Below the pieces are notes generated by a model. The model was not told the origin of the DNA. It did not search any database and saw only the letters and a list, made by a program, of their open reading frames with translations. From an uncultured Actinomycetes bacterium (GTDB taxonomy: Bacteria > Actinomycetota > Thermoleophilia > Gaiellales > Gaiellaceae), in assembly GCA_963798725.1 (NCBI GenBank), contig CAWCUL010000003.1, forward strand, positions 46,910-110,909: a stretch of 64,000 nucleotides of DNA. Reading direction: 5' to 3'. Made by a program: the position numbers and the translations under genes. The number at the start of each line of letters is the position of its first letter. Positions within the stretch are counted from its first letter, which is position 1. Below, one piece after another: positions 1,512-54,009 of the stretch.

Positions 1512-2624
1512 ATGGCGACCGCCGTGCTGGGCGCCGACGTCGCAGTCGAGCGGCTCGACGTCTCCGTGTTTACGGTGCCGACCGACTTCCCCGAGTCTGA
1601 CGGCACCGCAGAGTGGGACTCGACGACCATGGTGCTCGTCGAGGCCCACGGCGGCGACCACATCGGGCTCGGCTACACGTACGGCGACGCCGCGACCGGC
1701 ACGCTCGTACGCGACACGCTCGCGGAGGTCGTCGAGGGCCGCGACGCGCTCGCGGTGACGGCGACCTGGCAGGCGCTCGTGCGCGCCTGTCGCAACCTCG
1801 GGCGGCCCGGCCTCGCGTCGATGGCGATCGCCGCTGTCGATACGGCGCTCTGGGACCTGAAGGCTCGGTTGCTCGACCTGCCGCTCGCAACCCTCCTCGA
1901 CGCGTCACACGAGAGCGTCCCGGTCTACGGAAGCGGGGGCTTCACCTCCTACCCCGACGGACGTCTGGCCGAGCAGCTCGCCGGTTGGGCTGAGCAGGGG
2001 ATCCCGCGCGTGAAGATGAAGGTGGGGCGCGACCCGGAGGACGACCTGCGGCGGCTCGGGATCGCGCGCGCGTCGATCGGGGAGGCGACCGAGCTCTTCG
2101 TCGACGCGAACGGGGCGCTCACGCGCAAAGAGGCGGTCCGGTTCGCCGCGTCGTACGCAGACGACTTCGGCGTGCGCTGGTTCGAAGAGCCGGTCTCCTC
2201 CGACGACCTGGCCGGGCTCCGCCTGATACGCGACCGTGGGCCGGGGGGCATGGATGTCGCCGCGGGCGAGTACGGCTACACGCTCGACTACTTCGAGCGG
2301 ATGTTGGCCGCCGGTTCGGTCGACTGCCTGCAGGCGGACGTCACGCGCTGTGAGGGAATCACCGGCTTCTTGCGTGTAGCGGCGCTCTGTCAGGCCCGCT
2401 CGTTGCAGCTCTCCGCTCACTGCGGCCCGGCGATCCACCTTCACCCGTGCTGCGCGGTCGTGCCGCTCCGCCATCTCGAGTACTTCCATGACCACGTCCG
2501 CATCGAGCGGATGCTCTTCGACGGGGTCCAGGCCCCGGTGGACGGTGAGCTCCGCCCCGATCTCTCACGGCCGGGGAACGGGCTCGAGCTCAAGCGCGCC
2601 GACGCCGAACCCTACGAACACTGA
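1512..2624 (+). CDS. Mandelate racemase/muconate lactonizing enzyme (enolase superfamily) protein
   Basis: KMKVG, FVDANG, WFEEP, AGEYGY, QADVTRCEG, SAHC metal/catalytic motifs; ATG directly follows the upstream stop. Confidence 0.9.
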   Translation: MATAVLGADVAVERLDVSVFTVPTDFPESDGTAEWDSTTMVLVEAHGGDHIGLGYTYGDAATGTLVRDTLAEVVEGRDALAVTATWQALVRACRNLGRPGLASMAIAAVDTALWDLKARLLDLPLATLLDASHESVPVYGSGGFTSYPDGRLAEQLAGWAEQGIPRVKMKVGRDPEDDLRRLGIARASIGEATELFVDANGALTRKEAVRFAASYADDFGVRWFEEPVSSDDLAGLRLIRDRGPGGMDVAAGEYGYTLDYFERMLAAGSVDCLQADVTRCEGITGFLRVAALCQARSLQLSAHCGPAIHLHPCCAVVPLRHLEYFHDHVRIERMLFDGVQAPVDGELRPDLSRPGNGLELKRADAEPYEH

Positions 2625-2639
2625 ACGAAGGAGAACCGA

Positions 2640-3086
2640 ATGACACTGGGCAAGAGGCGCGGCCGAGTCGCACGAGCGCTCGCCAACGTACGCGCAGGAC
2701 GAATGCAGAGGACGCTGGCCGCAGCGGCGGCGCTGAGCGCTCCACCGCTCGCCTTCGAGATCTACCTCGAGCACTACAAGGGCTCGTTCGGCGACAAGTG
2801 GATGTGGACACCGGTCGTCTTGACCCCGCCGCTGACGGCGGCCGGGATCGCCGCCGTCTTCTCGGAACGAGCGGCCAGGACAGTGCTGCCGGCGATCTCG
2901 GCCCTCTACTGCCTCGACGGAATCGTCGGTCTCGTGACCCACGTGCAGGGCGTGCGCAAGAAGCCGGGCGGCTTCTCCGAGCCGACCTACAACCTCGTGA
3001 TGGGCCCGCCGCTCCTCGCGCCCGGGTCGCTGCTCATGATCGGAGGCTTTGGCCTGCTGGCGCCGCTCATGGGGCGAGAGCGCTGA
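2640..3086 (+). CDS. Hypothetical integral membrane protein (about 4 TM)
   Basis: RBS GAAGGAG upstream; hydrophobic segments; motifs EHYKGSF and NLVMGPPLLAPG; operonic position. Confidence 0.75.
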   Translation: MTLGKRRGRVARALANVRAGRMQRTLAAAAALSAPPLAFEIYLEHYKGSFGDKWMWTPVVLTPPLTAAGIAAVFSERAARTVLPAISALYCLDGIVGLVTHVQGVRKKPGGFSEPTYNLVMGPPLLAPGSLLMIGGFGLLAPLMGRER

Positions 3087-3087
3087 C

Positions 3088-3819
3088 GTGGCACCTGACT
3101 TCCGCCAAGCCCTCCATCTACCGAATATCAGCGGCGACGTCGGCGCTGACCCGCACGAGCTCCCCCGGCAGCGCCGTGGGAGCACGCCGCAGATGCACGG
3201 CCGCTACCCGGACTACGACTGCCTAGAGCATGTCGGTCACTGGGACGATCTGACGCGCAAGGTCGTCCTCGATCGGATCGAGCACGTCCCCGACTACCGC
3301 TTCTTCACGGAATCGGAGAGAGCCACCCTCACAGCCTTCTGTGACGTGGTGCTCGCTCAGGATGCAGAGCCGAAAATCCCGGTGCTCGCATTCGTCGACG
3401 ACAAGCTTGCCGACGGGAAGCTGGACGGCTTCCAGTACGCCGACATGCCCGACGACCGGGAGACCTGGAGGCTCGTCGCGCGTGGGCTGGACGAGAGCGC
3501 CCAGGCACGCGGGGCGGTGTCGTACGCGGATGCACCGGACCGCCTGCAGGCCGCCCTCTCGGACGACCTCGCCGACGGGAAGCTCGAAGGAGGCGTCTGG
3601 GAGACGGTCGATCCCGGGCGCGCCTGGGGCGTCGTCATGCGGAGCGTCCTCGCGGCCTTCTACGCGCACCCCTGGGCATGGAACGAGATCGGCTTCGGCG
3701 GCCCTGCCTACCCTCGCGGCTACGCGCGGCTCGGGGGAGGGCTCTCGGAGACCTGGGAAGGCGCCGAGGCGATCGATGTCGACCCGGTGAAGGACGTGAA
3801 GAAGCGCGGGCTCGAATGA
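3088..3819 (+). CDS. Gluconate 2-dehydrogenase subunit 3 family protein
   Basis: GTG start 1 nt after the upstream stop; FYAHPWAWNEIGFGGPAYPRGY C-terminal signature; adjacent to a GMC flavoprotein. Confidence 0.8.
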   Translation: MAPDFRQALHLPNISGDVGADPHELPRQRRGSTPQMHGRYPDYDCLEHVGHWDDLTRKVVLDRIEHVPDYRFFTESERATLTAFCDVVLAQDAEPKIPVLAFVDDKLADGKLDGFQYADMPDDRETWRLVARGLDESAQARGAVSYADAPDRLQAALSDDLADGKLEGGVWETVDPGRAWGVVMRSVLAAFYAHPWAWNEIGFGGPAYPRGYARLGGGLSETWEGAEAIDVDPVKDVKKRGLE

Positions 3820-5513
3820 GGTTGGGCGCCGACCTTCTCAAGGGCTCTGTTCAGCCACCGGACAACGACTCGGCGTTCCTGCTCGACGTCCACCGGCGCG
3901 GCGTGCCCGGGCGAGAGCGCATGCGTCGCTTTTCGGACACAGACGAGGTCGACCTGCTCGTCGTCGGCTGCGGCGCCGGGGGATCCGTGCTCGCCCAGCG
4001 GCTCGCGCGTGCCGGCTGGCGGATCGTCGTTCTCGACCGCGGCCCGTTCTGGGATCCAGACGAGGACTGGGTCTCGGACGAGGAGGGGTCGCACCACATC
4101 TACTGGACCGACAAGCGCATCGTCGGAGGCGAGGACCCGGTCGAGCTCGGCAAGAACAACTCCGGACACGGCGTCGGCGGGTCGATGGTGCACTTCGCCG
4201 GCTACACGCCTCGGTTCCACCCCTCCGACTTCGAAACACGCACGCGCGACGGGGTCGGCGACGACTGGCCGATCTCCTACCGGAACCTGAAGCCCCACTA
4301 CGAGCGTCTCGAGCACGAGCTTCCGGTCGCCGGGCAGCACTGGCCCTGGGGAGACCCGCATACGTATCCGCATGGGCCGCACCCGATCGGAGGCGCGGCG
4401 GGACGTGTGTGGGAGGGCGCCCGCGCACACGGAATCGAGATGCGGGTCGGGCCGGTCGCGATCACGAACGGCGTCTTCGGGAACCGGCCGCACTGCATCT
4501 ACCGCGGCTTCTGCCTGCAGGGCTGCAAGGTCAACGCGAAGGCATCGCCACTGGTAACCCACGTCCCCGATGCCATCGAGCACGGTGTCGAGATCCGCGC
4601 AGGCTCCATGGCCGTGCGGATCGAGCTCGACGAGGCGAGCGGGAGGGTCGCGGGCGTGACCTACGTCGACGTCGAGAGCGGGCGCGAGCGCTTCCAGCGG
4701 GCCGCGGCGGTCGCCGTCTGCGGCTACTCGATCGAGTCGCCGCGGCTTCTGCTCAATTCGATCTCGAATCGGTTTCCTCATGGGCTCGCAAACACCCACG
4801 ACCAGGTCGGCCGATACGTGATGGTGCAGGGCGCGAGCCAGGTCGCCGGACGCTTCCCCGCGCTCCTGCGCATGTACAAGGCGCCGCCGCCCGAGGTCTC
4901 GTCCGAGCAGTTCTACGAGACCGACGAGTCGCGCGGCTTTGCCCGCGGCTTCTCGCTGCAGACGGTGAGCCCGCTCCCGATCGGCTGGGCCGAGCACGTG
5001 CTCGCCGACGGTCACCGCGGGGCGGCGCTGCGCGAGTACATGCGCGACTACAACCACTGGGCCGTTCTCGGCTCGCTGTGCGAGCTTCTGCCCTTGCGCG
5101 AGAACCGGGTCACGCTCGCCGACGAGCCCGACCAGTTCGGGATGCCGGTCGCGCGCTTCGACTACACGCAGTCTGACAACGACCGCGCCAATATCGCCTT
5201 CGCGAAGGAGACCATGCATGCGATCTGGGAGACGGCCGGCGCGCAGGACGTCCTCACGATCGACCGCTACGCCCACCTCGTCGGCGGCTGCCGCATGGGC
5301 TTCTCCGCGCCGACGAGTGTCGTCAACGCCGATCACCAGGCATGGGAGGTGGCCAACCTGTTCGTTTGCGACGGCAGCGTGATGCCGACCCAGGGCGCGG
5401 CCAACCCGGCGCTGACCATCATGGCGCTCGCCTCGCGGCTCGCCGAGCGCCTGACGAGAAAGCGCATCTCCTCGCAGACGCGCATGCAAGGGAAAGCAGC
5501 TGCAGCGCGCTGA
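3816..5513 (+). CDS. GMC family oxidoreductase (flavoprotein subunit)
   Basis: ATGA overlap; VVGCGAGGS FAD motif, GVGGSMVH, CIYRGFCLQGC Cys cluster, HLVGGCRMG, NLFVCDGSV, ANPALTI. Confidence 0.92.
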   Translation: MRLGADLLKGSVQPPDNDSAFLLDVHRRGVPGRERMRRFSDTDEVDLLVVGCGAGGSVLAQRLARAGWRIVVLDRGPFWDPDEDWVSDEEGSHHIYWTDKRIVGGEDPVELGKNNSGHGVGGSMVHFAGYTPRFHPSDFETRTRDGVGDDWPISYRNLKPHYERLEHELPVAGQHWPWGDPHTYPHGPHPIGGAAGRVWEGARAHGIEMRVGPVAITNGVFGNRPHCIYRGFCLQGCKVNAKASPLVTHVPDAIEHGVEIRAGSMAVRIELDEASGRVAGVTYVDVESGRERFQRAAAVAVCGYSIESPRLLLNSISNRFPHGLANTHDQVGRYVMVQGASQVAGRFPALLRMYKAPPPEVSSEQFYETDESRGFARGFSLQTVSPLPIGWAEHVLADGHRGAALREYMRDYNHWAVLGSLCELLPLRENRVTLADEPDQFGMPVARFDYTQSDNDRANIAFAKETMHAIWETAGAQDVLTIDRYAHLVGGCRMGFSAPTSVVNADHQAWEVANLFVCDGSVMPTQGAANPALTIMALASRLAERLTRKRISSQTRMQGKAAAAR

Positions 5514-5582
5514 TGCAACGCAACACCCAGGCGGCCCGCGCGAGGACGGGCAGCATCACGCATCCGAGCGAGAGGGGAAATC

Positions 5583-6584
5583 GTGAACGGAAACGGAAGG
5601 AAAGAAGTCGTCGTGGTCACCGGCGCGTCCGGCGGCGTGGGGCGGGCGGTAGCCCACGCGTTCGCCAGGCGCGGCGCGCACATCGGGCTCGTGGCGCGCG
5701 GTGAGCAGGGCCTCGAAGGTTCACGCCGGGAGGTCGAGTCCCTCGGCGGCCAGGCGCTCGTGCTGCCCACGGACGTGGCCGACGCCGAGCAGGTCGAGGC
5801 CGCGGCCGAGGCGGTCGAGAGCGAGCTCGGGCCGATCGACGTCTGGGTCAACGACGCGATGGCCACCGTGTTCGCTCGGTTCGTGGACGTCACGCCCGAG
5901 GAGTTCCAGCGAGCGACGGAGGTCACCTACCTCGGCACCGTCTACGGGACGATGGCAGCGCTCCAGCGGATGGTTCCGCGCGACCGCGGCACGGTGGTGC
6001 AGGTCGGCTCGGCGCTTTCCTACCGGGCAATACCCCTGCAATCGACGTATTGCGGAGCAAAGTTCGCGGTGCGCGGCTTCACCGACTCGGTGCGGACCGA
6101 GCTGATGCACGACGGCAGCAACGTCTGGATCACGATGGTGCAGCTACCGGCGGTCAACACCCCGCAGTTCAACTGGTGTCGTACGAAGCTTCCCGACCAC
6201 CCTCAACCGGTGCCGCCGATCTACCAGCCGGAGGTGCCGGCCGAGGCGGTCTACTGGGCGGCGCACCACCGCCGGCGCGAGCTCGACGTCGGCGCGAGCG
6301 CGGTCAAGGCGATCGTGGGCAACAAGCTCTCGCCGCGCATCGCCGACTGGTATCTCGCCCGCGGCGGCTACGCCTCGCAGCAGGTCGACGGGATGTCCGT
6401 CGGCGATCGTCGGGACAACCTCTTCGCGCCCGTGCCCGAAGAGGCCGCGACGCACGGCATGTTCGACGATCGAGCCAGAACGCGCAGCTATCAGCTCTGG
6501 GCAAACACGCACCGGCCTCTCGCTGCAGCAGCGCTCGCCGCCGCTGCCGGAGCGGCAGCGGGTCTCGCGCGACGAGGGCGGTGA
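5583..6584 (+). CDS. SDR family oxidoreductase with C-terminal extension
   Basis: TGASGGVG, VWVNDA, YCGAK (YxxxK). Confidence 0.92.
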   Translation: MNGNGRKEVVVVTGASGGVGRAVAHAFARRGAHIGLVARGEQGLEGSRREVESLGGQALVLPTDVADAEQVEAAAEAVESELGPIDVWVNDAMATVFARFVDVTPEEFQRATEVTYLGTVYGTMAALQRMVPRDRGTVVQVGSALSYRAIPLQSTYCGAKFAVRGFTDSVRTELMHDGSNVWITMVQLPAVNTPQFNWCRTKLPDHPQPVPPIYQPEVPAEAVYWAAHHRRRELDVGASAVKAIVGNKLSPRIADWYLARGGYASQQVDGMSVGDRRDNLFAPVPEEAATHGMFDDRARTRSYQLWANTHRPLAAAALAAAAGAAAGLARRGR

Positions 6585-6668
6585 GCGAGCCGGATGGATC
6601 AGGCGACCAGCCCGAACACGGCATTAACATCGGATGACGATCTATATTGCCCGCAAGGAGGTGGTTCG

Positions 6669-7052
6669 ATGGCTCTGGATGACACGATCTCGGCCGTTTC
6701 CCACGACGCGCTGACGGCGGCTGATCCGACACCGGGGCTCGTGCGCGAGGTGGCGTTCGCAACCGACCGTGCGCTTCTCACTCGCGTTCACGGGGAGCCG
6801 AGGATCGTCTCGGGTTGGCATCACCACGGACAACGGGAGGTGCTCGGGTACGTGCTACGCGGCCGCGTGCGGTTCGAGTTCGGGCCGGGCGGCCGATCGA
6901 CCACCGACGTCGAGGAAGGCGGGTTCTTCCACGTGCCGGTCGGGTGCGTGCACCGGGACGTCAATCCCGAGGACGTCGCGCAGGAGCTGATCATCTCGTT
7001 CGTGGGTGAAGGCCCGCTCGTCGTCAATCTCGGCGGCCCCGACGCGGTCTGA
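6669..7052 (+). CDS. Cupin domain protein
   Basis: WHHHG...E and FFHVPVGCVH cupin motifs; RBS AGGAGG before ATG 6669 (alternative start 6594). Confidence 0.8.
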   Translation: MALDDTISAVSHDALTAADPTPGLVREVAFATDRALLTRVHGEPRIVSGWHHHGQREVLGYVLRGRVRFEFGPGGRSTTDVEEGGFFHVPVGCVHRDVNPEDVAQELIISFVGEGPLVVNLGGPDAV

Positions 7053-7079
7053 CCCGGCCCGTCGCGCTCGACCGCGTCC

Positions 7080-7105
7080 GATGAGTTTCGCGCGGCCGTC
7101 CGGTC
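7080..7105 (+). promoter_or_regulatory. Candidate ECF-type promoter GATGAGTTT-N13-GGTC
   Basis: Near-identical motif and spacing recur upstream of another VOC gene (31348-31323, minus strand). Confidence 0.45.
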
Positions 7106-7135
7106 TGTACCCGGACCCGACCGGATGGAGGAAAC

Positions 7136-7609
7136 ATGCAGAAGATCACCCCGTGCCTCTGGTTCGACACGGAAGGAGAGGAGGCAGCCCGTTTCTACAC
7201 CTCGGTCTTCCCGAACTCGCGGATCGTCGAGGTCACGCACTACGGCTCTGCGGGCCCGCGACCGGAGGGGATGGTGATGACCGTGACCTTCGAGCTGGAC
7301 GGGCAGCAGTTCACCGCGCTCAACGGCGGTTCGCAATTCGCGTTCAACGAGGCGCTCTCGCTCGCGGTGAGCTGTGAGGCGCAGGAGGAGGTCGACAGGC
7401 TCTGGAGCGCGCTCTCCGAGGGAGGCGAGGAAGGACCATGCGGCTGGCTCAAGGACCGCTACGGCCTGTCGTGGCAGATCGTCCCCGCCAGGCTTCTGGA
7501 GCTTCTCTCCGACCCCGACCGCGAGAAGGCGCAGCGCGTGATGGCCGCCATGCTGCAGATGGGGAAGATCGACATCGCCGGTCTCGAGCAGGCGGCCGGG
7601 GCTGCCTGA
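7136..7609 (+). CDS. VOC family protein (PhnB / 3-demethylubiquinone-9 3-methyltransferase-like)
   Basis: [34 protein letters not shown]; RBS GGAGG. Confidence 0.9.
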
Positions 7610-7727: not shown

Positions 7728-8525
7728 CTAGAGGCTCGTGACGTCGTTCGGGCCGCCTGCCAGCTCGGCGAGCACGGCTGCCGCCGCCGCTGCGACGTGA
7801 GGCTCCACGCCCAGGTCCGAGAGGAGCGCAACGGCCGCGTCCATTTCGTCCACACGACGACGAGCGTGGACCGAGCTTCCGGCCACGAGCCGCTCGAGGA
7901 GCGCCTCGTCGGCAGCGTCGAGCACGGCGGCGATCTCGGTGCGAAGCCACGGCTCGCAGTCCGCGGCGCGTGCTGCAGAGAGGCTCTCGATCGCGGCCGC
8001 GGCGATCCCCTTGGTGAAGACGCTGCGCACGAGCTTGCGGGTCGCTGCTTCGCCGGGAACGTCGCCGAGCACCGCGACCGGCGTGCCGAGCGGGCCGAAG
8101 ATCGCCGCGTAGAGCGGCGCTCCCGGGCCCGAGGCGAGGCAGGGTACGCCGAGGCCCCTTCCCGGTAACGGGCCGAGGACGGCGACGTCTACGAACGCCG
8201 CTCTGGACGGCGCGATCGCCGCGGCGAGGTCGCGCTTGGTCGCCGCACTCGTCGTGTTGAGGTCGGCATACAGATGGGCTGCGGTGAGGTCCATCGCGAC
8301 GCTCCTCGCGGCCCCGAGCGCGACGGACGCGGCGTTGACGCTGAGAACGGCGTCGGCGGGTGCGGCCGCGTCGCCCGGAGCGCCGACGCGCTCGACCCCC
8401 GCGACCGACCGCGAGGTGTCGGGATCGAAGCCCAGAGTCCGAACGCCTGCAGCGACGAGATCGGCGGCGATCGCGGAGCCCGCCTCGCCGAGGCCGAGCA
8501 GGGCGATCACCGGCAGTTCGGTCAC
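7728..8525 (-). CDS. NAD(P)-dependent oxidoreductase, 3-hydroxyisobutyrate/6-phosphogluconate dehydrogenase-like (DUF1932 type)
   Basis: LLGLGEAGSAIA Rossmann motif, YADLNTTS, KLVRSVFTKG, HARRRVDEM. Confidence 0.8.
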   Translation of the reverse strand: MTELPVIALLGLGEAGSAIAADLVAAGVRTLGFDPDTSRSVAGVERVGAPGDAAAPADAVLSVNAASVALGAARSVAMDLTAAHLYADLNTTSAATKRDLAAAIAPSRAAFVDVAVLGPLPGRGLGVPCLASGPGAPLYAAIFGPLGTPVAVLGDVPGEAATRKLVRSVFTKGIAAAAIESLSAARAADCEPWLRTEIAAVLDAADEALLERLVAGSSVHARRRVDEMDAAVALLSDLGVEPHVAAAAAAVLAELAGGPNDVTSL

Positions 8526-8584
8526 GCCCCTGTCCTCTGCTTGACCACGCCTCTCGTCAGCTTAGGCGGTAACGTCGCGCCTGG

Positions 8585-9547
8585 ATGCGCGACACGAGTG
8601 TGGCGAATCTTCGGGACGACGGATCGTCGGCACAGCCGTCCGATCGTGCGCGTGAGCTCGTGCGCACGGCGTACGACCTGCACGTGCACATCGGCCCGGA
8701 CGTGATGACCCGCCGGATCGACGACGTCACGCTCGCCGAGCGGTTCCTCGAGGTCGGTCTTGCCGGCTTCGGCCTCAAGTCGCACTACACGTCGACCGCC
8801 GAGCGGGCGCAGGTTGTCGCCCGGGCGGTTCCCGGGGTCGACGTCGTCGGGACGCTCACCCTGAACGCCGCGATCGGCGGCCTCAACCCCCTTGCCGTCG
8901 AGATCGCCGCGAGGGAGGGCGCGCGGATCGTATGGCTGCCGACCGTCGACGCCGTCAACGAGGCCGGCGCGCGGGATCGCGAGTATCCCGAGGGCGCTGC
9001 CAAGCCTCTATGGGCGCGAATCCAGTCGGAGCTTCGCGACCAGGGGCTCGAGGCGGCGCCGGTGGCGGTCGTCGACGGTGCCGGAGAGCCGCTCCCGGCG
9101 CTCCTCGACGTGCTCTCGGTCGTCGCGCGCCATGGCCTCGTTCTCGGGACCGGCCACCTCGACCGGGACGAGATCTTCACGGTCGTCGACGCCGCGCTCG
9201 CCGCGGGCGTGCGGAACGTCGTCGTCACGCACCCGGAGTTCCCGGCGCAGGACCTCGGCATCGACGACCAGATCGCGCTCGCAGGGCGCGGTGCGCTCCT
9301 CGAGCGCTGCTTCACGACGCCCTACACGGGCAAGTGCTCGTGGGAGCGGGTATGCGAGGGGATCCGCGCGACGGGCGCCGAGCGCAATCTTCTCTCCACC
9401 GATCTCGGTCAACCGGCGAACCCGCCGGTCGAGGACGGGCTCGCGCTGTTCGCCGAGTCGCTTCTCGAAGGCGGCGTCACCGAGGACGAGGTCCACACGA
9501 TGACCGTCGTCAACTCGCGGGCGCTCGCGGGGGTCGCGGCCGAATGA
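8585..9547 (+). CDS. Metal-dependent amidohydrolase-like TIM-barrel protein (DUF6282-like)
   Basis: DLHVH, LKSH, WLPT, GTGHL, VTHP, STDLGQ motifs. Confidence 0.75.
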   Translation: MRDTSVANLRDDGSSAQPSDRARELVRTAYDLHVHIGPDVMTRRIDDVTLAERFLEVGLAGFGLKSHYTSTAERAQVVARAVPGVDVVGTLTLNAAIGGLNPLAVEIAAREGARIVWLPTVDAVNEAGARDREYPEGAAKPLWARIQSELRDQGLEAAPVAVVDGAGEPLPALLDVLSVVARHGLVLGTGHLDRDEIFTVVDAALAAGVRNVVVTHPEFPAQDLGIDDQIALAGRGALLERCFTTPYTGKCSWERVCEGIRATGAERNLLSTDLGQPANPPVEDGLALFAESLLEGGVTEDEVHTMTVVNSRALAGVAAE

Positions 9548-10257
9548 GTCGCAGGCTGCTCGTGATCGGCGCGCACTCGGCGGACTTCGTGTGGCGCGCG
9601 GGAGGCGCGATCGCAGTGTCAACCAGAGCGGGCGGCGTGGCGCAGGTGATCGCCCTGTCCTACGGTGAGCGGGGCGAGTCGGGCGAGCTCTGGAAGGTCG
9701 AAGGCCAGACGGTCGAGAACGTCAAGCGCGCTCGCCACGCCGAGGCGGAGCGGGCGGCGACGGCGCTCGGTGCCGAGCTCGTGGCGCTCGATTTCGGCGA
9801 CTACCCGCTCGAGATCGGCGAGGAGCGTCTGGCTCGGGTCGTGGAGGCAATCCGTGCGTTTGCGCCGGACGTGATCGTGACGCATACCGACACCGACCCC
9901 TTCAACCCGGACCACCCGGTTGCACACGCCGCGGTGATGCGGGCGCGTACCCTCGCCGCGGGTGCCGGCGTCGCGAGCGCGTTCCCGACGATCTCGTCGC
10001 CGGCCCTCTTCCTCTTCGAGCCGCACCAGCCCGAGCTGTGCAACTTCGTTCCCACCACGTTCGTGGATATCACGGGCGTGATCGAGTCGAAGCGCGAGGC
10101 GATGGGGGCGATGGAGTCGCAGGCGTACCTGCGGACGTACTACGACGAGCGCGCGGGTCACCGTGGCAATCACGCGCGCCGAGCGTCGGGCTCGAGCGAG
10201 ATCCGGTTCGCCGAGGCGTTCCAACGCGTCCTGCCCCAGGTGGTGGCAGAGCTGTGA
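9544..10257 (+). CDS. galB: PIG-L family protein, 4-oxalomesaconate hydratase GalB-like
   Basis: GAHSADFVWRAGG (HSAD rather than HPDD), LSYGERGESGELWK, DPFNPDH, FEPHQPELC; ATGA overlap. Confidence 0.85.
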   Translation: MSRRLLVIGAHSADFVWRAGGAIAVSTRAGGVAQVIALSYGERGESGELWKVEGQTVENVKRARHAEAERAATALGAELVALDFGDYPLEIGEERLARVVEAIRAFAPDVIVTHTDTDPFNPDHPVAHAAVMRARTLAAGAGVASAFPTISSPALFLFEPHQPELCNFVPTTFVDITGVIESKREAMGAMESQAYLRTYYDERAGHRGNHARRASGSSEIRFAEAFQRVLPQVVAEL

Positions 10258-10877
10258 GCGCATTCTCGGAGCTCGCGCGGCTCGGCACGGCGACCGTGTA
10301 CGAGGCATCGGGTCGCGTGGGCCTCGTCGACGTCGCCCTCCACCAGATCGTCCCGGGCTCCCGCGCCGCGGGGCCGGCCCGCACCGTGCGCTGCGGCCAG
10401 GACGACAACCTTGCGATGCACGCGGCGATGGCCGCGGTCAAGCCCGGTGACGTGCTCGTCGTGACGATGCCCGAGCCGACGCCGGTTGCCCTCATGGGCG
10501 ACCTGCTCGCGACCCAGGCAAAGGTCCACGGCGCCGCAGCGGTTCTCGTCGACGGGGCGGTACGCGACGTCGAGGAGCTCGCCGAGCTCGGCCTGCCGGT
10601 CTGGGCGCGCTACGTCCGGGTTCGAGGCGCCGGCAAGGAGGACCCGGGTGCGATCGACGAGACCGTGACCGTCGGCGGTCAGCCGATCGAGCCCGGAGAC
10701 GTCGTCGTCCTCGACGCGGACGGTGCCGCGGTGGTCGCCCGCAGCCGGGTCGACGAGGTGCTCGATGCAGCGCTCGAGCGCGAACGGCGCGAGACCGCGA
10801 AGCGAGCAAAGCTCCAGGCCGGAGAGCTGTCCTACGACCTCGACGGGCTGCGGGCGAAGATGGAGGGATCGCCGTGA
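10254..10877 (+). CDS. galC: 4-carboxy-4-hydroxy-2-oxoadipate/HMG aldolase (GalC/LigK, RraA fold)
   Basis: TVYEA, GPARTVRCGQDDNLAMH, MGDLLATQA, DGAVRDV, DADGA; GTGA overlap. Confidence 0.85.
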   Translation: MSAFSELARLGTATVYEASGRVGLVDVALHQIVPGSRAAGPARTVRCGQDDNLAMHAAMAAVKPGDVLVVTMPEPTPVALMGDLLATQAKVHGAAAVLVDGAVRDVEELAELGLPVWARYVRVRGAGKEDPGAIDETVTVGGQPIEPGDVVVLDADGAAVVARSRVDEVLDAALERERRETAKRAKLQAGELSYDLDGLRAKMEGSP

Positions 10878-11884
10878 GCCGCGGCGATCTCGCGCATCTC
10901 GGCCACGTCGAGCTCTTGACGCCCGAGCCGGAGCGGAGCCTGCGGTTCTTCGTCGACGGGCTCGGGATGGAGCAGGAGGCGGCCGAGGGCCAGTCGGTGT
11001 TCCTGCGGGGATACGGGGACTACCAGCGCTATTCGCTGAAGCTCACGGAGGCGCCCGAGGCAGGCATGGGCCACCTCGCGATCCGCGCCGCGAGCCAGGA
11101 AGGGCTCGAGCGAAGGGTCGACGCGGTCACCGCCGCGGGGCACGGCCTCGGCTGGATCGACGGCGACGTCGGCCACGGGCCCGCGTACCGGTGTGCCGAT
11201 CCCGACGGCCATGTCTTCGAGCTCTACTACGAGACCGAGCGCTACGAGGCTCCCGCGCACCTCCGGCCGGTGCTGCGGAACCAACCGCAGCGGTACACGG
11301 GCCGCGGAGTGGGGGTCACGCGCCTCGATCACGTGAACCTGCTCTCGGCCGAGGTGACGCCGTGTCGCGTGTTCGCGACCGACGAGCTCGGTTACGGCCA
11401 CTACGAGGGCATCGTGCTCGACGACGGCACCGAGTCGGGTGCGTGGCTCAGCCTCTCGATCGCCGCGCACGAGCTGATCTACGTCGCCGACGCCCGTGGG
11501 CTCAGCGGCCGGCTGCACCACATCGCGATGTGGGTCGACACACGCGAGGAGGTGATGCGCGCAGCCGACGTGCTGATGGAGCACCGGGTGCCGATCGAGT
11601 TCGCTCCGTCGAAGCACACGGTCAGCCAGGGCTACTTCCTCTACGTCTTCGAGCCGGGGGGCAACCGGGTCGAGATCACGAGCGGCGGCTACTTCGTCTA
11701 CGACCCCGATCGCGAGCCAATCCTGTGGACGGAGGCCGAGCGATCGCGCGGCCAGGCGTGGGAGGTCAAGACCGTCGAGAGCTTCCACTACTACGGCACG
11801 CCACCCACCGACACCGATCGCGCGTACGCGGCGCGCGCACGGGATGCGATGTCCGAACCGGGGGAGAGGGACGGGAGCGCATGA
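10874..11884 (+). CDS. Type I (VOC-fold) extradiol ring-cleavage dioxygenase, catechol 2,3-dioxygenase family
   Basis: HLGHVELLT, LDHVNL (Fe His), AHEL, LHHIA (Fe His), KH..SQGYFLYVFEPGGNRVE (His/Tyr/Fe Glu). Confidence 0.88.
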   Translation: MSRGDLAHLGHVELLTPEPERSLRFFVDGLGMEQEAAEGQSVFLRGYGDYQRYSLKLTEAPEAGMGHLAIRAASQEGLERRVDAVTAAGHGLGWIDGDVGHGPAYRCADPDGHVFELYYETERYEAPAHLRPVLRNQPQRYTGRGVGVTRLDHVNLLSAEVTPCRVFATDELGYGHYEGIVLDDGTESGAWLSLSIAAHELIYVADARGLSGRLHHIAMWVDTREEVMRAADVLMEHRVPIEFAPSKHTVSQGYFLYVFEPGGNRVEITSGGYFVYDPDREPILWTEAERSRGQAWEVKTVESFHYYGTPPTDTDRAYAARARDAMSEPGERDGSA

Positions 11885-11981
11885 GACGTCCTGTGTCAAC
11901 TTCTGACGCCCGCGCGTTCCCGTCAGGCGGCGGCGGAGCCCGGCTCTGCCGGGCGGGAGCGGCCGCCGGCCGGGAGCGCGC

Positions 11982-12740
11982 GTGACGGGGGTGCTCGAGG
12001 GCCGACGGGCGCTGATCACCGGCGCGGCCGCGAACATCGGCGCCGCGACGGCGCGGCGCTTCGCCGAGGAGGGCGCGAAGCTTCTTCTGATCGATCGCGA
12101 CCCGGCGATCGAGGCAACGGCTGCCGCGATCCGCAAGACCGGTGGGGAGTCGAGCGGCGTCGTCGTCGACCTCTCTTCCGTCGAGGAGGTCGACGCGCTC
12201 ACGGGGATCGTGGAGGAGCGGCTCGGCGGTCTCGACGTCCTCGTGAACAACGCCGCCGTCCAGCGGGTCGGCGGGGTGGACGACTTCTCGGTCTCCGACT
12301 GGGACGAGACGTTCGCGGTCAACGTCCGCGGGTGCTTTCTGACGGTGCGGGCGCTGGTTCCGCACCTCCGCCGGTCCGACGCTGCGGCGATCGTGAACAC
12401 GTCCTCCCAGGTGGGGCTCCACGGCGCGCCCGGGGCAACCGCGTACTCGGCGTCCAAGGGCGCGGTGATCGCGTTCACGAAGGCGCTGGCGCTGGAGCTC
12501 GCAGCAGATGGGATCCGCGTGAACGCGATCTGTCCCGGTTGGGTCGACACGTCGTTCAACGAGCCTGCGATCGGGATGCTCGGCGGCCACGAGGCGCACG
12601 CCGACCTCGTCCGAGCGACCATCCCGCTCGGACGTCAGGCGCGTCCCGACGAGATCGCGGCCGGCACCCTGTACCTCGCGTCCCGTGAGTCCTCCTACAT
12701 GACGGGCCAGGTCCTCCCGGTAGACGGCGGGGTGACGTGA
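11982..12740 (+). CDS. SDR family oxidoreductase
   Basis: TGAAANIG, NNAA, YSASK, IRVNAICPG. Confidence 0.9.
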   Translation: MTGVLEGRRALITGAAANIGAATARRFAEEGAKLLLIDRDPAIEATAAAIRKTGGESSGVVVDLSSVEEVDALTGIVEERLGGLDVLVNNAAVQRVGGVDDFSVSDWDETFAVNVRGCFLTVRALVPHLRRSDAAAIVNTSSQVGLHGAPGATAYSASKGAVIAFTKALALELAADGIRVNAICPGWVDTSFNEPAIGMLGGHEAHADLVRATIPLGRQARPDEIAAGTLYLASRESSYMTGQVLPVDGGVT

Positions 12741-14335
12741 GCCGTACCGTCCGCGACGAGACGTTCGCGCTGATGCGCCGTCTCGGGATGACGCGGATCT
12801 TCGGCAACCCGGGATCGTCGGAGATCCCTTTTCTCACCGACGTTCCCGACGACCTCGATTTCGTCCTCGGGCTCCACGAGGGAGCCGTGGTCGGCATGGC
12901 GAGCGGCTACGCGCTGGGCACCGGCCGGCCGGCGTTCGTCAACCTGCACACGGCCCCGGGGCTCGGCAACGCGGTCAACGCGATCGTGTGCGCGCGCGAC
13001 AACCGCATCCCACTCGTGATCGTCGTCGGCCAGCAGGATCGCCGCCAGCTGCCGTTCGCGGCGTTCCTCACGGGTCGCAACCTCGAGCGGCTCGCGGGCG
13101 ACTACCCGGTGTGGGCGACACAGCCGGCCGACCCCGCGTCGGTGCCCGGGGCGATCGCGCGCGCCTGGCACGAGGCCGTCCTCCGTCGTGGGCCGGCCGT
13201 CATCGTCGTGCCCATGGGCGACTGGGAGGTAGCCCTCGGCGACGACTGGCCGGGTGTCGCGGCCCCCGACACCCTGTTGCACGATTCGCTGCCTGCGGAC
13301 GCGGCCGTCGAGGAGCTCGCTCGGCTCGTCGCGGCGGCGTCCGCACCCGCCCTCGTTGTCGGCGCCGGTCTCGACACGCCCGATGGTTGGACGGCCGTGG
13401 TCGCCCTGGCCGAGCGGCTCTCTTGCCCCGTCTGGCAGGACACGTTCTCGAGCCGCGCAGGCTTCCCGCAGGATCATCGCCTCTTCGCCGGGCACCTGCC
13501 CTGGAGCCGCAGCGGCCTGCGGGCCTGCTTCGCCGGCACGGACCTCGTGATCGCCGCGGGAACCCCCGCGTTCAGGCTCTACCTCCACGACGGCGGCACG
13601 CTCGTCGAGGACGGCACCCGGGTCGCCGTCGTCAGCGACGATGCGGAGGAGACCAACCGGAGCCGCTGCGATCTCGCCGTGCTCGGGTCGCCCGCGCGCG
13701 TGCTCTCCGCCCTCGTTCCCGGGGTCGCGGAACGAAGCGGGGAGGTCGCGGGCATCGAGCGTCCTCCTCCTCCGCCCCCGCCCGCGCCGGGCGAGGCGCT
13801 CGCGGCCGAGCATCTCCTCCAGGCGCTCGCCGAGCGGCTTCCCGCCGACGCGATCCTCGTCGAGGAGGCGCCGTCGAGCCGTCCGGAGCTGCTCGCGCGC
13901 GTGGCCATTCGGTCGCCGTTGGGCTTCCTCGCGGTCGCGAACGGCGCTCTCGGCTTCGCGTTGCCCGCCGCGATCGGGTTGCGCATGGCGCTGCCGGGAC
14001 GGCCCGTTGTCGCCCTCGTCGGGGACGGATCGGCCACGTACACGATCCAGGCACTCTGGAGCGCCGCGCACTATGGCGCAGGAGTCGCGGTATGCGTCGT
14101 CGGCAACGGCGGGTACGGGGTCATGGACGAGCTCGCGCGCCTCCACGGCGGGGTGGGCGCCTGGCCGTCGTTCGAGGAGCTCGACCTCGCCGCCGTGGCC
14201 CGGGGCTTCGGCTGCCCGGCGGAGCGGATCACGACCCACGACGAGCTTCTCGGCTCCCTCGACGACGTCCTCTCGGATCTGCGCGAGCGGAAGACACCGG
14301 TCCTTCTCGACGTCCGGGTCGGGCCGGGAGGCTGA
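12737..14335 (+). CDS. mdlC: Benzoylformate decarboxylase-like TPP enzyme
   Basis: FGNPGSSEIPFL, GLHEGAVVGMA, NLHTAPGLGNA, GDGSATYTIQALWSAA, NGGYG; GTGA overlap. Confidence 0.85.
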   Translation: MSRTVRDETFALMRRLGMTRIFGNPGSSEIPFLTDVPDDLDFVLGLHEGAVVGMASGYALGTGRPAFVNLHTAPGLGNAVNAIVCARDNRIPLVIVVGQQDRRQLPFAAFLTGRNLERLAGDYPVWATQPADPASVPGAIARAWHEAVLRRGPAVIVVPMGDWEVALGDDWPGVAAPDTLLHDSLPADAAVEELARLVAAASAPALVVGAGLDTPDGWTAVVALAERLSCPVWQDTFSSRAGFPQDHRLFAGHLPWSRSGLRACFAGTDLVIAAGTPAFRLYLHDGGTLVEDGTRVAVVSDDAEETNRSRCDLAVLGSPARVLSALVPGVAERSGEVAGIERPPPPPPPAPGEALAAEHLLQALAERLPADAILVEEAPSSRPELLARVAIRSPLGFLAVANGALGFALPAAIGLRMALPGRPVVALVGDGSATYTIQALWSAAHYGAGVAVCVVGNGGYGVMDELARLHGGVGAWPSFEELDLAAVARGFGCPAERITTHDELLGSLDDVLSDLRERKTPVLLDVRVGPGG

Positions 14336-14455: not shown

Positions 14456-14896
14456 ATGGCGTTCCGAGTAGTCCACCCCGACGAGCTCGTGTGGAGGACA
14501 CGCGATCACGCGCCGGACGAGCCGGCGCGTCATGTCGCGGAGCTGAGCGATCTGGCGGGCTTCGCCCACACGCGTGCGAACGTCTGGCGATACGAGCCCG
14601 GCGCCCAGGGGCGACGCCACAGGCACAGTCTCCAGGAGGAGACGTTCGTCGTCCTCGAGGGGACGCTCACGATGTACCTCGGCGACCCACCGGAGCGTCA
14701 TGACGTGCCCAGGGGCGGAGTGATCCACGTCGAGCCTGGCACGGTGCTCCAATCCGTGAACCACGGCGGCGAAGATCTCGTCGTCTACGCCTACGGCACG
14801 CCGCCGGAGCTGGAGCGAGCCGAGCTTCTCGACTCGGCAGTCCAGGCCGCGGGCAACGCGCCGCAGGCGCTGCCCACGCAGCACAACCCGGCGTAG
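14456..14896 (+). CDS. Cupin domain protein
   Basis: HRHSLQEETFVVLEG motif; TAGTCT -10 six nt before ATG (leaderless). Confidence 0.8.
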   Translation: MAFRVVHPDELVWRTRDHAPDEPARHVAELSDLAGFAHTRANVWRYEPGAQGRRHRHSLQEETFVVLEGTLTMYLGDPPERHDVPRGGVIHVEPGTVLQSVNHGGEDLVVYAYGTPPELERAELLDSAVQAAGNAPQALPTQHNPA

Positions 14897-14980: not shown

Positions 14981-15820
14981 TTGACGAACAGCGACACCCG
15001 CACCGACCGGATCCCGTTGATGCTGATTCACGGAGCCTGGCTTTCGTCACGCAGCTGGGAGAACTTCGCCGACTACTTCGAGAAGCGCGGCTTCGTCGTG
15101 TCGGCTCCGGAGTGGCCGCGCAAGCACGGCGAGGTCGAGGAGCTCCGCGAGAACACCGAGCAGCTCGAGGGCCTCGGCCTCACCGAGATCGTCGACCACT
15201 ACGAGACGTTGATCCGTGAGCTCGACGGGCCACCCGTTCTCGTCGGCCACTCGTTCGGCGGCCTGATCGTCGAGCTCCTGCTCGATCGCGGTCTCGGCCG
15301 GGCCGGCGTGGCGATGAGCCCGGCCCCGCCCAAGGGCATTCTCGTGCTCCCGTTCTCGTCGCTCAAGGCGGCGTCTCCCGCCCTCGCGCACCCGTCCCGG
15401 TGGCACGGCGTCGTGCCGCTGACGCAGGAGGAGTTCACGTACGGCTTCGTGAACACCTTCTCCCCCGAGGACGCCGTGGCGGCGTACGAGCGCTACGCCG
15501 TTCCGGAGACGGGCCAGATCTTCTACGAGGCGGGCTTCGCGAACTTCCACCTCCACCCGCCGACCGAGGTTCACTTCAAGGGCGGGGACCGGGCGCCGCT
15601 TCTCATCGTCGGCGCGGAAAAGGACCACACGGTGCCCGCGTCCGTCTCCCGGAAGCAGTACGAGAAGTACGAGCGCTCCTCGGCGAGGACCGACTATGTC
15701 GAGCTCGAGGGGAGGCCGCACTTGTTCCTCGTCGGCGACGGCTGGGAGGAGGCCGCAGCCGAGGTCGGCAGCTGGCTCGACGGGGTGCTCGACGCCGTTC
15801 CGGTCGAAGCGGCGTCCTGA
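14981..15820 (+). CDS. Alpha/beta hydrolase
   Basis: LIHGAW, VGHSFGG nucleophile elbow, DHTV, GRPH; TTG start with RBS AGGAGG. Confidence 0.88.
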   Translation: MTNSDTRTDRIPLMLIHGAWLSSRSWENFADYFEKRGFVVSAPEWPRKHGEVEELRENTEQLEGLGLTEIVDHYETLIRELDGPPVLVGHSFGGLIVELLLDRGLGRAGVAMSPAPPKGILVLPFSSLKAASPALAHPSRWHGVVPLTQEEFTYGFVNTFSPEDAVAAYERYAVPETGQIFYEAGFANFHLHPPTEVHFKGGDRAPLLIVGAEKDHTVPASVSRKQYEKYERSSARTDYVELEGRPHLFLVGDGWEEAAAEVGSWLDGVLDAVPVEAAS

Positions 15821-52971: not shown

Positions 52972-53142
52972 GGCTTGGGGGGGAAAGGGCGGGGTCGCGC
53001 TGCGGCGGCCCCGCCCGCGTCACGGCGGCAAGGAACGCATTGCCGACGCCGGCTCTGCGAGGATTGCGACGGTCGAGTCGATCGACGACGCGATGGGAAA
53101 CCGGATACCTCAGACGCTCGAGCGCGGATTGGCGGGGCCGCG

Positions 53143-54009
53143 GTGAGCATCGACCTGGAGCGGGTCGTCGCGATCGACGTGCATACGCACGCCGAGGTCG
53201 GGCGCACGGGGGAGGATGGCCTCCTGCCCGAGTGGCGCGAGGCCGCCGCCGCGTACTTCGGCGAGAGCAGGGTGCCGACCGCCGACGACGTTGCGGCCTA
53301 CTACCGGGAGCGCAACATGGTCGCCGTTGTCTTCACCGTCGACGCCGAGACCGTGACCGGCCGGCGCGCGGTGCGAAACGAGGAGATCTTCGAGTCGGCC
53401 GCGGCGAACCCCGACGTCCTGATCCCGTTCGCCAGCGTCGACCCCAACAGGGCGAACGCGCTCGAGGAGATCCGACGGCTCGTCCGCGACTACCCGGTGC
53501 GGGGCTTCAAGTTCCACCCGAACGTCCAGGCGTTCTTCCCGAACGACCGCGCGTTCTACCCTCTCTACGAGGCGATTCAGGAGGCCGGGGTGCCGGCGCT
53601 CTTCCACACCGGCCACTCGGGGATCGGCACCGGTCTTCCCGGCGGCGGCGGCATCCGGCTCAAGTACTCGAACCCGATGCACGTCGACGACGTGGCGGTC
53701 GACTTCCCCGAGCTGACGATCGTTCTCGCGCATCCGTCATTCCCGTGGCAGGACGAGGCGATCTCGGTCGCGCTCCACAAGCGCCAGGTCTACATCGACC
53801 TCTCGGGCTGGTCACCGAAATACTTCCCGCCGCAACTCGTCCGCTACGCGAACACGCAGCTCAAGGACCGGGTGCTCTTCGGCTCGGACTTCCCACTCAT
53901 CACACCGGACCGGTGGCTTGCCGATTTCGAGCAGGCGGGGTTCAAGGACGAGGTGAAGCCGCTGATCCTGAAGGAGAACGCGGTCCGGTTGCTCGGGCTC
54001 GGGGACTGA
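53143..54009 (+). CDS. Amidohydrolase_2 family, 4-hydroxyphenyl-beta-ketoacyl-CoA hydrolase-like
   Basis: IDVHTH, GFKFHP, FHTG, AHPSFPWQDEA, IDLSGWSPKYFP, FGSDFP. Confidence 0.88.
   Translation: MSIDLERVVAIDVHTHAEVGRTGEDGLLPEWREAAAAYFGESRVPTADDVAAYYRERNMVAVVFTVDAETVTGRRAVRNEEIFESAAANPDVLIPFASVDPNRANALEEIRRLVRDYPVRGFKFHPNVQAFFPNDRAFYPLYEAIQEAGVPALFHTGHSGIGTGLPGGGGIRLKYSNPMHVDDVAVDFPELTIVLAHPSFPWQDEAISVALHKRQVYIDLSGWSPKYFPPQLVRYANTQLKDRVLFGSDFPLITPDRWLADFEQAGFKDEVKPLILKENAVRLLGLGD

Follow-up and report, generated by a model that had tools for sequence, protein, structure and literature searches.

Organization of the locus

The subject of this analysis is a gene cluster in the genome of an uncultured soil member of the Gaiellaceae (Actinomycetota, class Thermoleophilia; assembly GCA_963798725.1), located in a stretch of 64,000 nucleotides of contig CAWCUL010000003.1 (hereafter the window; G+C content ∼70%). 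The cluster combines homologs of the gallate-pathway enzymes GalB and GalC with a ring-cleaving dioxygenase of the Glyoxalase/VOC fold, and probably encodes a meta-cleavage route for carboxylated catechols that is independent of LigB-type enzymes. Genes were called by frame analysis of the GC content at third codon positions together with translation, and were named by Pfam and NCBIfam scans. In window coordinates, the locus comprises:

7728-8525, minus strand: dehydrogenase-type protein with NAD_binding_2 and DUF1932 domains (PF09130 51.5 bits, PF03446 31 bits)
8526-8584, no strand: divergent intergenic region of 59 bp (read from the sequence)
8585-9547, plus strand: DUF6282 protein (PF19799, 204.6 bits)
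9544-10257, plus strand: PIG-L protein, GalB-type (PF02585; match to Pseudomonas putida GalB)
10254-10877, plus strand: RraA-like protein, GalC/LigK-type (NF006731; 3NOJ)
10874-11884, plus strand: two-domain Glyoxalase/VOC protein, type I extradiol dioxygenase (Pfam, TIGR03211 scan, Fe ligands)
11885-11981, no strand: GC-rich palindromic element of 97 nt, similar to repetitive extragenic palindromic sequences (folding and repeat matches in the genome)
11982-12740, plus strand: classical short-chain dehydrogenase/reductase (SDR) (adh_short_C2, 217.6 bits)
12737-14335, plus strand: benzoylformate decarboxylase (BFD)-like thiamine diphosphate (ThDP) enzyme (NF005485; PDB matches)

A preliminary description of the window, made from its letters alone, had listed the same genes (DUF6282, galB, galC, a type I dioxygenase, SDR and BFD, with a divergent DUF1932 gene), and this list proved correct by Pfam, NCBIfam and translation. 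The four genes between 8585 and 11884 are translationally coupled through overlaps (ATGA at 9544-9547, GTGA at 10254-10257 and GTGA at 10874-10877), and the SDR and ThDP genes overlap likewise (GTGA at 12737-12740). The open reading frame of galC opens at 10038, but the true start is the GTG codon at 10254. The 59 bp that separate the DUF1932 gene from the operon presumably serve as a shared promoter/operator; they contain no match to the sigma-70 consensus, which is uninformative for this phylum, and no regulator gene adjoins the operon.

GalB and GalC

The PIG-L protein scores 75.7 bits against PF02585 (cut-off 28.2) and matches P. putida GalB (5CGZ) over its full length (residues 4-235) with an E-value of 1.7e-54, while the other, deacetylase-type PIG-L structures reach 6e-5 or worse. 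The motif AHSADFVWRAGGAIA is common to both GalB proteins, and the models for bacillithiol and mycothiol deacetylases score far under their cut-offs on the window protein. By homology it is thus a genuine GalB, i.e., a predicted 4-oxalomesaconate/4-carboxy-2-hydroxymuconate hydratase.

The RraA-like protein narrowly exceeds the cut-off of NF006731 (182.6 vs. 179), stays under that of TIGR02798 (ligK_PcmE; 168.1 vs. 304.5), and aligns without gaps to 3NOJ (E-value 3e-43). In the P. putida aldolase, Arg-123 is catalytic, Asp-124 and Glu-199 are metal ligands, and Arg-40, Asn-71, His-75, Gly-101, Lys-147 and Arg-195 line the pocket (PMC5065237). Nine of ten active-site positions are kept in the window protein (R123, D124, E199, R195, N71, H75, K147, R40 and G101), the sole change being T145 to Ala. 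We therefore regard it, at the level of sequence, as a genuine GalC/LigK-type HMG/CHA aldolase/oxaloacetate decarboxylase (where CHA stands for 4-carboxy-4-hydroxy-2-oxoadipate and HMG for 4-hydroxy-4-methyl-2-oxoglutarate). The assignment of both genes in the preliminary description is borne out by these matches.

A distinct clade of type I extradiol dioxygenases

The dioxygenase has a VOC fold and falls outside the LigB fold (PF02900). It contains the type I iron ligands H153, H216 and E267 as well as H199, H248 and Y257, which align with H155, H217, E268, H200, H249 and Y258 of AphC. The best NCBIfam model is TIGR03211 (catechol 2,3-dioxygenase), whose equivalog cut-off is not reached (304.2 vs. 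320.2).

Among 237 aligned homologs of the window enzyme and its Geobacillus counterpart, a C-terminal motif consisting of R290, R292, Q294, W296, T300 and H305 is kept in 234-236 sequences (R290 in 236, Q294 and H305 in 235 each), with Arg or Lys at position 292. The pocket that accommodates the C4 substituent of the substrate in AphC is formed by W192, M205, I251, L296, L303 and F309 (PMC9062432). At the corresponding positions the clade has W191, V/T/S204, I/V250, Q294, V/I301 and H305, and AphC in turn has I, T, V and K where the clade has R290, R/K292, W296 and T300. Across phyla, the motif was found in all nine enzymes with oxalomesaconate-pathway neighbors and in none of four from other contexts, namely those of Thermus thermophilus HB8 (in a dmp-type pathway), Deinococcus and Rhodococcus qingshengii, and AphC itself. 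Overall identity to the window enzyme is alike in both sets (48% for HB8 vs. 46-54%). Homologs on Rhodococcus plasmids are AphC-like, with ∼40% identity, and lack the motif as well. Since the motif tracks the oxalomesaconate context and replaces a hydrophobic pocket, a polar or anionic substituent, i.e., a carboxylated catechol as substrate, is supported at the sequence level. The enzymes form a distinct type I (VOC) clade, which is a candidate for gallate/3-O-methylgallate cleavage and/or cleavage of protocatechuate in a 4,5-type mode. On 4-substituted catechols, type I enzymes can perform 2,3 or 1,6 cleavage, as set by the orientation in which the substrate binds.

In the Thermoleophilia branch, His occupies the second-sphere acid-base position 199 (codon at ∼11468-11470), equivalent to His200 of AphC and of homoprotocatechuate dioxygenase; 118 of the 237 clade members have Tyr there. 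The latter include the solved Geobacillus enzyme 9WGJ and all Thermus and proteobacterial examples (L096, L097, L098, L099, L102, L104, L105). A Tyr in place of His at a residue held to be central to O2 activation is unusual.

Conservation of the module in Thermoleophilia

A scan of species-representative genomes with the dioxygenase alignment yielded 555 relatives, of which the best 80 loci were examined for homologs of the neighboring genes within 10 kb. The numbers of loci with a homolog were:

DUF6282: 69
GalC: 69
GalB: 67
DUF1932: 58
LigM/DesA-like demethylase of the GcvT fold: 45
methylenetetrahydrofolate reductase (MTHFR): 30
BFD-like: 16
SDR: 1

These counts define a conserved module of DUF1932, DUF6282, GalB, GalC and the dioxygenase, with the SDR outside of it. 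The association, recurring in 67-69 of the 80 loci, is far beyond chance, and DUF6282 is the partner most tightly linked to the dioxygenase. The DUF1932 gene, treated as a side item in the preliminary description, is actually the conserved dehydrogenase gene of the module and recurs in other phyla as well.

In a sample of 301 genomes of the class, GalB occurs in 21, including the genome studied here, and in all 20 others the dioxygenase lies ∼1-3 kb away, which makes the VOC enzyme a constant neighbor of GalB/GalC. Fourteen of these 20 genomes contain no match to the LigB family. The trait is patchy: within the genus, none of the four further genomes sampled contains GalB. A bona fide PcaH is likewise encoded in all 21 cluster-bearing genomes, in many cases at a distance of 6-25 kb. 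The demethylase found beside the dioxygenase in relatives is a second paralog, best matched by the DesA model (673.5 bits, under its cut-off).

Some loci show apparent gene fusions: RraA+VOC (P0078/L008, 10001-11578), PIG-L+RraA (L010, 8535-10004) and DUF1932+DUF6282 (L030, 6995-8662). These were rejected as Rosetta-stone evidence, since Arg/Ala/Gly-rich out-of-frame stretches occur at the junctions and in some internal segments; they are most likely frameshift errors of metagenome-assembled genomes from long reads.

The module in other phyla

The core is also found in Geobacillus zalihae, Thermus oshimai, Agrobacterium, Pantoea and Thioclava, and the DUF1932 protein is annotated in clusters of Agrobacterium, Pantoea, Thioclava, Methylobacterium, Roseomonas, Thermus and Geobacillus. 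In T. oshimai, PobA is encoded nearby. Gal-like clusters of Agrobacterium vitis, Pantoea piersonii, Thioclava and Rhizobium etli encode a LysR regulator, an aromatic-acid transporter, GalB, CHA aldolase and oxalomesaconate tautomerase, and in these proteobacterial clusters the VOC dioxygenase and the DUF1932 protein occupy the place of GalA. R. etli is an exception in that the dioxygenase, aldolase and DUF1932 genes are not annotated and the dioxygenase frame is truncated. In A. vitis, a carboxylesterase gene follows the cluster.

On plasmid p1 of Roseomonas mucosa (L099, NZ_CP147881.1, 110355-127507), one operon-like run contains genes for a LigB-type (class III) extradiol dioxygenase, a motif-bearing VOC dioxygenase, a DUF1932 protein, an amidohydrolase, LigK and VanAB; the two coexisting dioxygenase types presumably serve different substrates. 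Plasmids of Agrobacterium isolated from walnut and grapevine, and of Rhizobium isolated from Calliandra, Leucaena and Gliricidia, carry further copies of the clade; these hosts are rich in tannin. Human samples have yielded Pantoea piersonii and Roseomonas with such copies.

DUF6282 and DUF1932

Among 32 DUF6282 homologs, the residues H33, H35, K65, H191, H216 and D273 (HxH/K/H/H/D) are invariant. An AlphaFold model built from these homologs has a predicted local distance difference test (pLDDT) score of 91, and a Foldseek search with it retrieved only TIM barrels of the amidohydrolase superfamily, at low TM-scores (up to 0.61 when normalized to the query). The PDB contains no sequence relatives of DUF6282, and we found no literature on the family. 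The model therefore suggests an amidohydrolase-superfamily TIM barrel of the hydrolase type with a full set of binuclear-metal ligands. The protein matches PF19799 only and not Amidohydro_2/COG3618 and, with its metal set, does not classify as a LigI, with which it has only the superfamily fold in common.

GalD was found in none of the 80 Thermoleophilia loci and nowhere in the genome studied here, and is present in four proteobacterial clusters without DUF6282 (tblastn with A. vitis GalD). DUF6282 and GalD thus never co-occur, and clusters that are otherwise identical have either the one or the other; DUF1932 accompanies both versions. Accordingly, DUF6282 is a candidate 2-pyrone-4,6-dicarboxylate lactonase or oxalomesaconate isomerase. 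The earlier proposal that it replaces LigI survives as only one option; given the exclusivity, DUF6282 may do the job of GalD instead.

The conserved dehydrogenase combines NAD_binding_2 and DUF1932 domains and does not have the Gfo/Idh/MocA fold of LigC. Its best solved relatives (1I36, 3QSG and 4EZB) are all without known function. We consider it a candidate for a LigC-like oxidizer of a ring-fission semialdehyde.

Aromatic metabolism elsewhere in the genome

The genome (3.08 Mb, 6 contigs, 95.8% complete) contains no match to the LigB family (PF02900) or to PrpF (PF04303; GalD/LigU). That no canonical upstream enzyme lies in the window, as noted in the preliminary description, therefore extends to the whole genome, and the search for a canonical galA or ligAB elsewhere that could feed GalB/GalC came back empty. 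Three Amidohydro_2 genes of the genome were considered as hidden LigI or LigJ and rejected, as none matches the relevant curated model. One of them (52972-54009, 181.7 bits) lies in the window, 39 kb from the operon, without an NCBIfam match and in a non-aromatic context next to genes for an AfsR/BTAD-NB-ARC-TPR regulator, a protein of 267 aa that has no assignment, and a molybdopterin oxidoreductase; a link to the operon is not apparent.

Ortho-cleavage of protocatechuate is encoded at C2:26822-32354 by a pcaIJ-pcaHG-pcaC-pobA cluster. PcaH, PcaG, PcaC and PobA exceed their curated cut-offs, while a pcaB-like gene narrowly misses its own (352.9 vs. 355.75). At C2:151110-153453, an MTHFR-like gene is followed by an ortholog of the vanillate/3-O-methylgallate O-demethylase LigM (854.9 bits, cut-off 580). 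The DesA-like paralog that neighbors the dioxygenase in relatives is absent from this genome, which has the LigM ortholog only.

The SDR-BFD pair and the flanking genes

The SDR reaches no equivalog cut-off in NCBIfam. The BFD-like enzyme scores 477.7 against NF005485 (cut-off 493), and P. putida BFD accounts for all of its best PDB matches (E-values ∼1e-90). A BFD-like homolog directly follows the dioxygenase gene in the closest relatives (L018, L019), and 13 loci contain one with at least 50% identity, 11 of them without a LigM-like gene within 10 kb. This distribution suggests that the SDR-BFD pair represents an alternative upstream feeder and not a core step. Both are lineage-specific accessory genes, and the BFD-like protein possibly acts as an aryl-glyoxylate decarboxylase feeding the pathway. 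As an add-on, its gene recurs in 16 of the 80 loci.

The pair is set apart from the core by the 97-nt spacer, which folds at -68.3 kcal/mol (z = -3.56; none of 200 shuffled sequences was as stable) into a hairpin without a U-tail. The spacer has 18 matches in the genome, among them a full-length copy at 85% identity and part-length copies at 92%. It may be an attenuator, an RNA stabilizer, or the junction at which the SDR-BFD pair replaced the MTHFR-demethylase pair of the relatives.

Further genes on both sides of the operon were considered. Downstream, a cupin (14456-14896) and an alpha/beta hydrolase (14981-15820) were rejected as pathway members, having homologs in none of the 80 loci and no NCBIfam assignment. 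Upstream, the region 3-7609 encodes a pyruvate-oxidase-like ThDP protein (cut by the start of the window), a sugar-acid-dehydratase-like enolase, a protein similar to subunit 3 of gluconate 2-dehydrogenase together with a GMC oxidoreductase, a PRK07109-type SDR, a cupin and a PhnB-like protein, and looks like a separate sugar-acid/oxidoreductase cluster. A mandelate pathway was considered for 3-6584 (ThDP enzyme, MR/MLE protein, GMC oxidoreductase) and rejected, since NCBIfam names the proteins concerned as pyruvate-oxidase-like and sugar-acid-dehydratase-like; these genes are unrelated to the operon.

A proposed LigB-independent route to oxalomesaconate

We propose that the module probably constitutes a LigB-independent meta-cleavage route converging on 4-oxalomesaconate/4-carboxy-2-hydroxymuconate (OMA), through which gallate- or protocatechuate-type plant phenolics are very probably broken down to pyruvate and oxaloacetate. 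In this scheme, the VOC-clade dioxygenase would open a carboxylated catechol, with Arg, Arg/Lys, Gln and His in place of the hydrophobic substituent pocket. A product of the semialdehyde type, if formed, would be oxidized with NAD(P)+ by the DUF1932 protein in the manner of LigC. DUF6282 would then provide the substrate of GalB, either by hydrolyzing 2-pyrone-4,6-dicarboxylate (LigI-like) or by isomerizing oxalomesaconate (GalD/LigU-like). The subsequent hydration by GalB and the cleavage by GalC to pyruvate and oxaloacetate are predicted steps well supported by homology. The SDR and the BFD-like enzyme, downstream of the repeat-derived hairpin, would form a separate lineage-specific pair outside the conserved pathway.

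With regard to the physiological substrate of the dioxygenase, we tentatively favor gallate/3-O-methylgallate, at slightly less than an even chance; protocatechuate, cleaved in the 4,5 mode, is a lesser possibility, and something else is not very likely. As PcaH is present in all cluster-bearing genomes of the class sample, protocatechuate already has an ortho route, which favors gallate/3-O-methylgallate. The DesA-like paralog beside the dioxygenase in relatives and the proteobacterial clusters mirroring the gal architecture speak for gallate as well, and type I cleavage beside the third hydroxyl of gallate would yield oxalomesaconate directly. On the other hand, only a semialdehyde product needs a dehydrogenase, and the conservation of DUF1932 across lineages thus favors 4,5-cleavage of protocatechuate. 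Enzymes that produce protocatechuate (PobA, VanAB and LigM) are encoded near the dioxygenase in Thermus, Roseomonas and Thermoleophilia. LigAB of Sphingobium uses both gallate/3-O-methylgallate and protocatechuate, and a LigAB-like enzyme accepting both would reconcile the two lines of evidence. The sequence data do not decide between the gallate and protocatechuate options of the preliminary description.

Several points weigh against the proposed route. All steps upstream of GalB we infer from gene context, and the substrate cues conflict, with the pcaHG ortho route on one side and the conserved dehydrogenase on the other. The 2,3 mode, in which type I enzymes normally cleave 4-substituted catechols, would not give oxalomesaconate from protocatechuate. 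The score of the dioxygenase is just under the catechol 2,3-dioxygenase cut-off, so that activity on plain catechols is possible. Finally, as the DesA-like paralog is missing, a source of syringate is not evident in the genome studied here.

An ordinary catechol-type meta-cleavage, in which a non-carboxylated catechol or pyrogallol is opened and GalB/GalC-like enzymes process the product (for example 2-hydroxymuconate to 4-hydroxy-2-oxoadipate and on to pyruvate and malonate semialdehyde, the semialdehyde being handled by DUF1932), would agree with TIGR03211 as the best model for the dioxygenase (304 vs. 320) and with the 48-49% identity to homologs in the classical dmp-type meta pathways of T. 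thermophilus HB8. It would also give DUF1932, whose characterized distant relatives are exclusively 3-hydroxyisobutyrate-type dehydrogenases acting on semialdehydes, a role without involving protocatechuate. Nevertheless, we consider it unlikely: the window GalB is matched along its entire length by the P. putida enzyme, which is specific for tricarboxylates, GalC keeps nine of ten CHA aldolase residues, the Arg-Arg/Lys-Gln-His motif is missing from the dmp-linked homolog, and the recurrent neighbors are aromatic-acid transporters and producers of carboxylated catechols (LigM/DesA-like demethylases, VanAB and PobA). Proximal, 2,3-type cleavage of protocatechuate to 5-carboxy-2-hydroxymuconate semialdehyde, followed by an unspecified route, appears improbable. 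The mode itself is that of AphC, XylE and homoprotocatechuate dioxygenase on 4-substituted catechols, the polar motif sits at the positions of the C4-substituent pocket of AphC, and the guess of Cai et al. for gallate in Rhodococcus opacus was 2,3-cleavage (PMC8442903). However, the 5-carboxy product is not convertible to oxalomesaconate or CHA, on which the operon's two best-identified enzymes act, and the cluster contains neither a PraH-type decarboxylase gene nor genes of a dmp-type lower pathway.

The wiring put forward in the preliminary description, with 4,5-cleavage of protocatechuate, the SDR replacing LigC and DUF6282 replacing LigI, and extended here by a need for the BFD-like enzyme, is very improbable in our view. 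It could draw on the position of the SDR and BFD-like genes, which are GTGA-coupled, on the same strand and directly 3' of the core, and on the presence of a BFD-like gene near the dioxygenase in 16 of the 80 loci. Against it stand the single locus with an adjacent SDR homolog, compared with 58 loci plus the cross-phylum examples for DUF1932, and the dispersed-repeat hairpin (-68 kcal/mol) between the core and the pair. The mostly LigM-free surroundings of the BFD-like homologs (11 of 13 loci) suggest an alternative feeder instead. The SDR is thus replaced by DUF1932 as the candidate for the LigC-like step.

The proposed oxalomesaconate route can be carried further, to a reading that falls just short of probable. 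In it, the VOC clade would be a third, convergent family of gallate/protocatechuate-4,5 dioxygenases, DUF1932 a new semialdehyde dehydrogenase and DUF6282 a new metal-dependent LigI- or GalD/LigU-like enzyme, together forming a complete alternative to LigAB/GalA that soil Thermoleophilia, Thermus, Geobacillus and plant-associated Agrobacterium/Rhizobium would use for acids derived from lignin and tannin. The breakdown of lignin and tannin funnels into protocatechuate and gallate, whose meta-cleavage both teaching and annotation treat as a function of the LigB superfamily. If the proposal is correct, surveys for ligAB, galA, desB or desZ overlook this capacity in Thermoleophilia (some of the most common actinobacteria of soil), in thermophiles and in plant-associated rhizobia. 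DUF6282, DUF1932 and the clade automatically named "catechol 2,3-dioxygenase" would gain a new or corrected function, the C-terminal motif offering a simple sequence test for re-annotation. New enzymes, including thermostable ones, would become available to convert lignin into 2-pyrone-4,6-dicarboxylate and similar building blocks.

Comparison with known systems

We found no literature describing this module, nor any on VOC gallate dioxygenases beyond the study of Cai et al. (2021), which provides the one experimental precedent for a VOC enzyme as a gallate-degrading dioxygenase, without product or pathway (PMC8442903). In Rhodococcus opacus PD630, which lacks a DesB/LigAB homolog, gallate degradation was shown by genetics to depend on the VOC type I enzyme AHK27425.1 ("catechol 2,3-dioxygenase"), which also suffices to remove gallate when present in Escherichia coli (PMC8442903). 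Compared by the reported ligands only, the spacing of its iron ligands His158, His221 and Glu272 (63 and 51 residues) equals that of the clade, while that of AphC is 62 and 51. The product was not determined and downstream genes were not described in that study (PMC8442903).

The closest biochemically characterized homolog of the window dioxygenase is AphC of Rhodococcus jostii RHA1 (7Q2A/3LM4), a 4-alkylcatechol 2,3-dioxygenase with ∼41% identity and identical catalytic machinery. Its alkyl pocket is hydrophobic (M205, L296, L303 and F309), in contrast to V/T/S204, Q294, H305, R290 and R/K292 in the clade, and AphC belongs to an alkylphenol meta pathway and not to an oxalomesaconate pathway. 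The Geobacillus zalihae protein 9WGJ, on which we found no literature, is a member of the clade itself, with 55% identity to the window enzyme, all motif residues, and genes for GntR, DUF6282, PIG-L, RraA-like, DUF1932 and major facilitator superfamily (MFS) proteins and an esterase as neighbors. It differs by a Tyr at the position of His199, and the name under which it was deposited ("catechol 1,2-dioxygenase") does not fit a VOC extradiol enzyme.

With the gal pathway of P. putida KT2440 (GalA, GalD, GalB, GalC, GalT and GalR), the module has homologous GalB and GalC in common, and its predicted end products would likewise be pyruvate and oxaloacetate. The proteobacterial versions (Pantoea, Thioclava and Agrobacterium) also keep GalD, a LysR regulator and an aromatic-acid MFS transporter. 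GalA, of the LigB fold, is replaced by the VOC enzyme and DUF1932, and in the window DUF6282 stands in the place of GalD. The reaction types proposed here (dioxygenase, NAD(P) dehydrogenase, amidohydrolase-fold hydrolase, hydratase and aldolase) match the protocatechuate 4,5 pathway of Sphingobium sp. SYK-6 (LigAB, LigC, LigI, LigU, LigJ and LigK, with the demethylases DesA/LigM and with DesB/DesZ) one-to-one. The likeness extends to the tetrahydrofolate-dependent LigM/DesA-like demethylase and MTHFR beside the dioxygenase in relatives and to the LigM ortholog in the genome studied here. Only the aldolase is homologous, however (GalC to LigK): a VOC dioxygenase stands against one of the LigB fold, DUF1932 against a Gfo/Idh/MocA dehydrogenase, DUF6282 with its binuclear metal site against the metal-independent LigI, and a PIG-L hydratase against one of the amidohydrolase type, and there is no LigU. 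The module is thus a real, conserved and non-orthologous variant of a known pathway.

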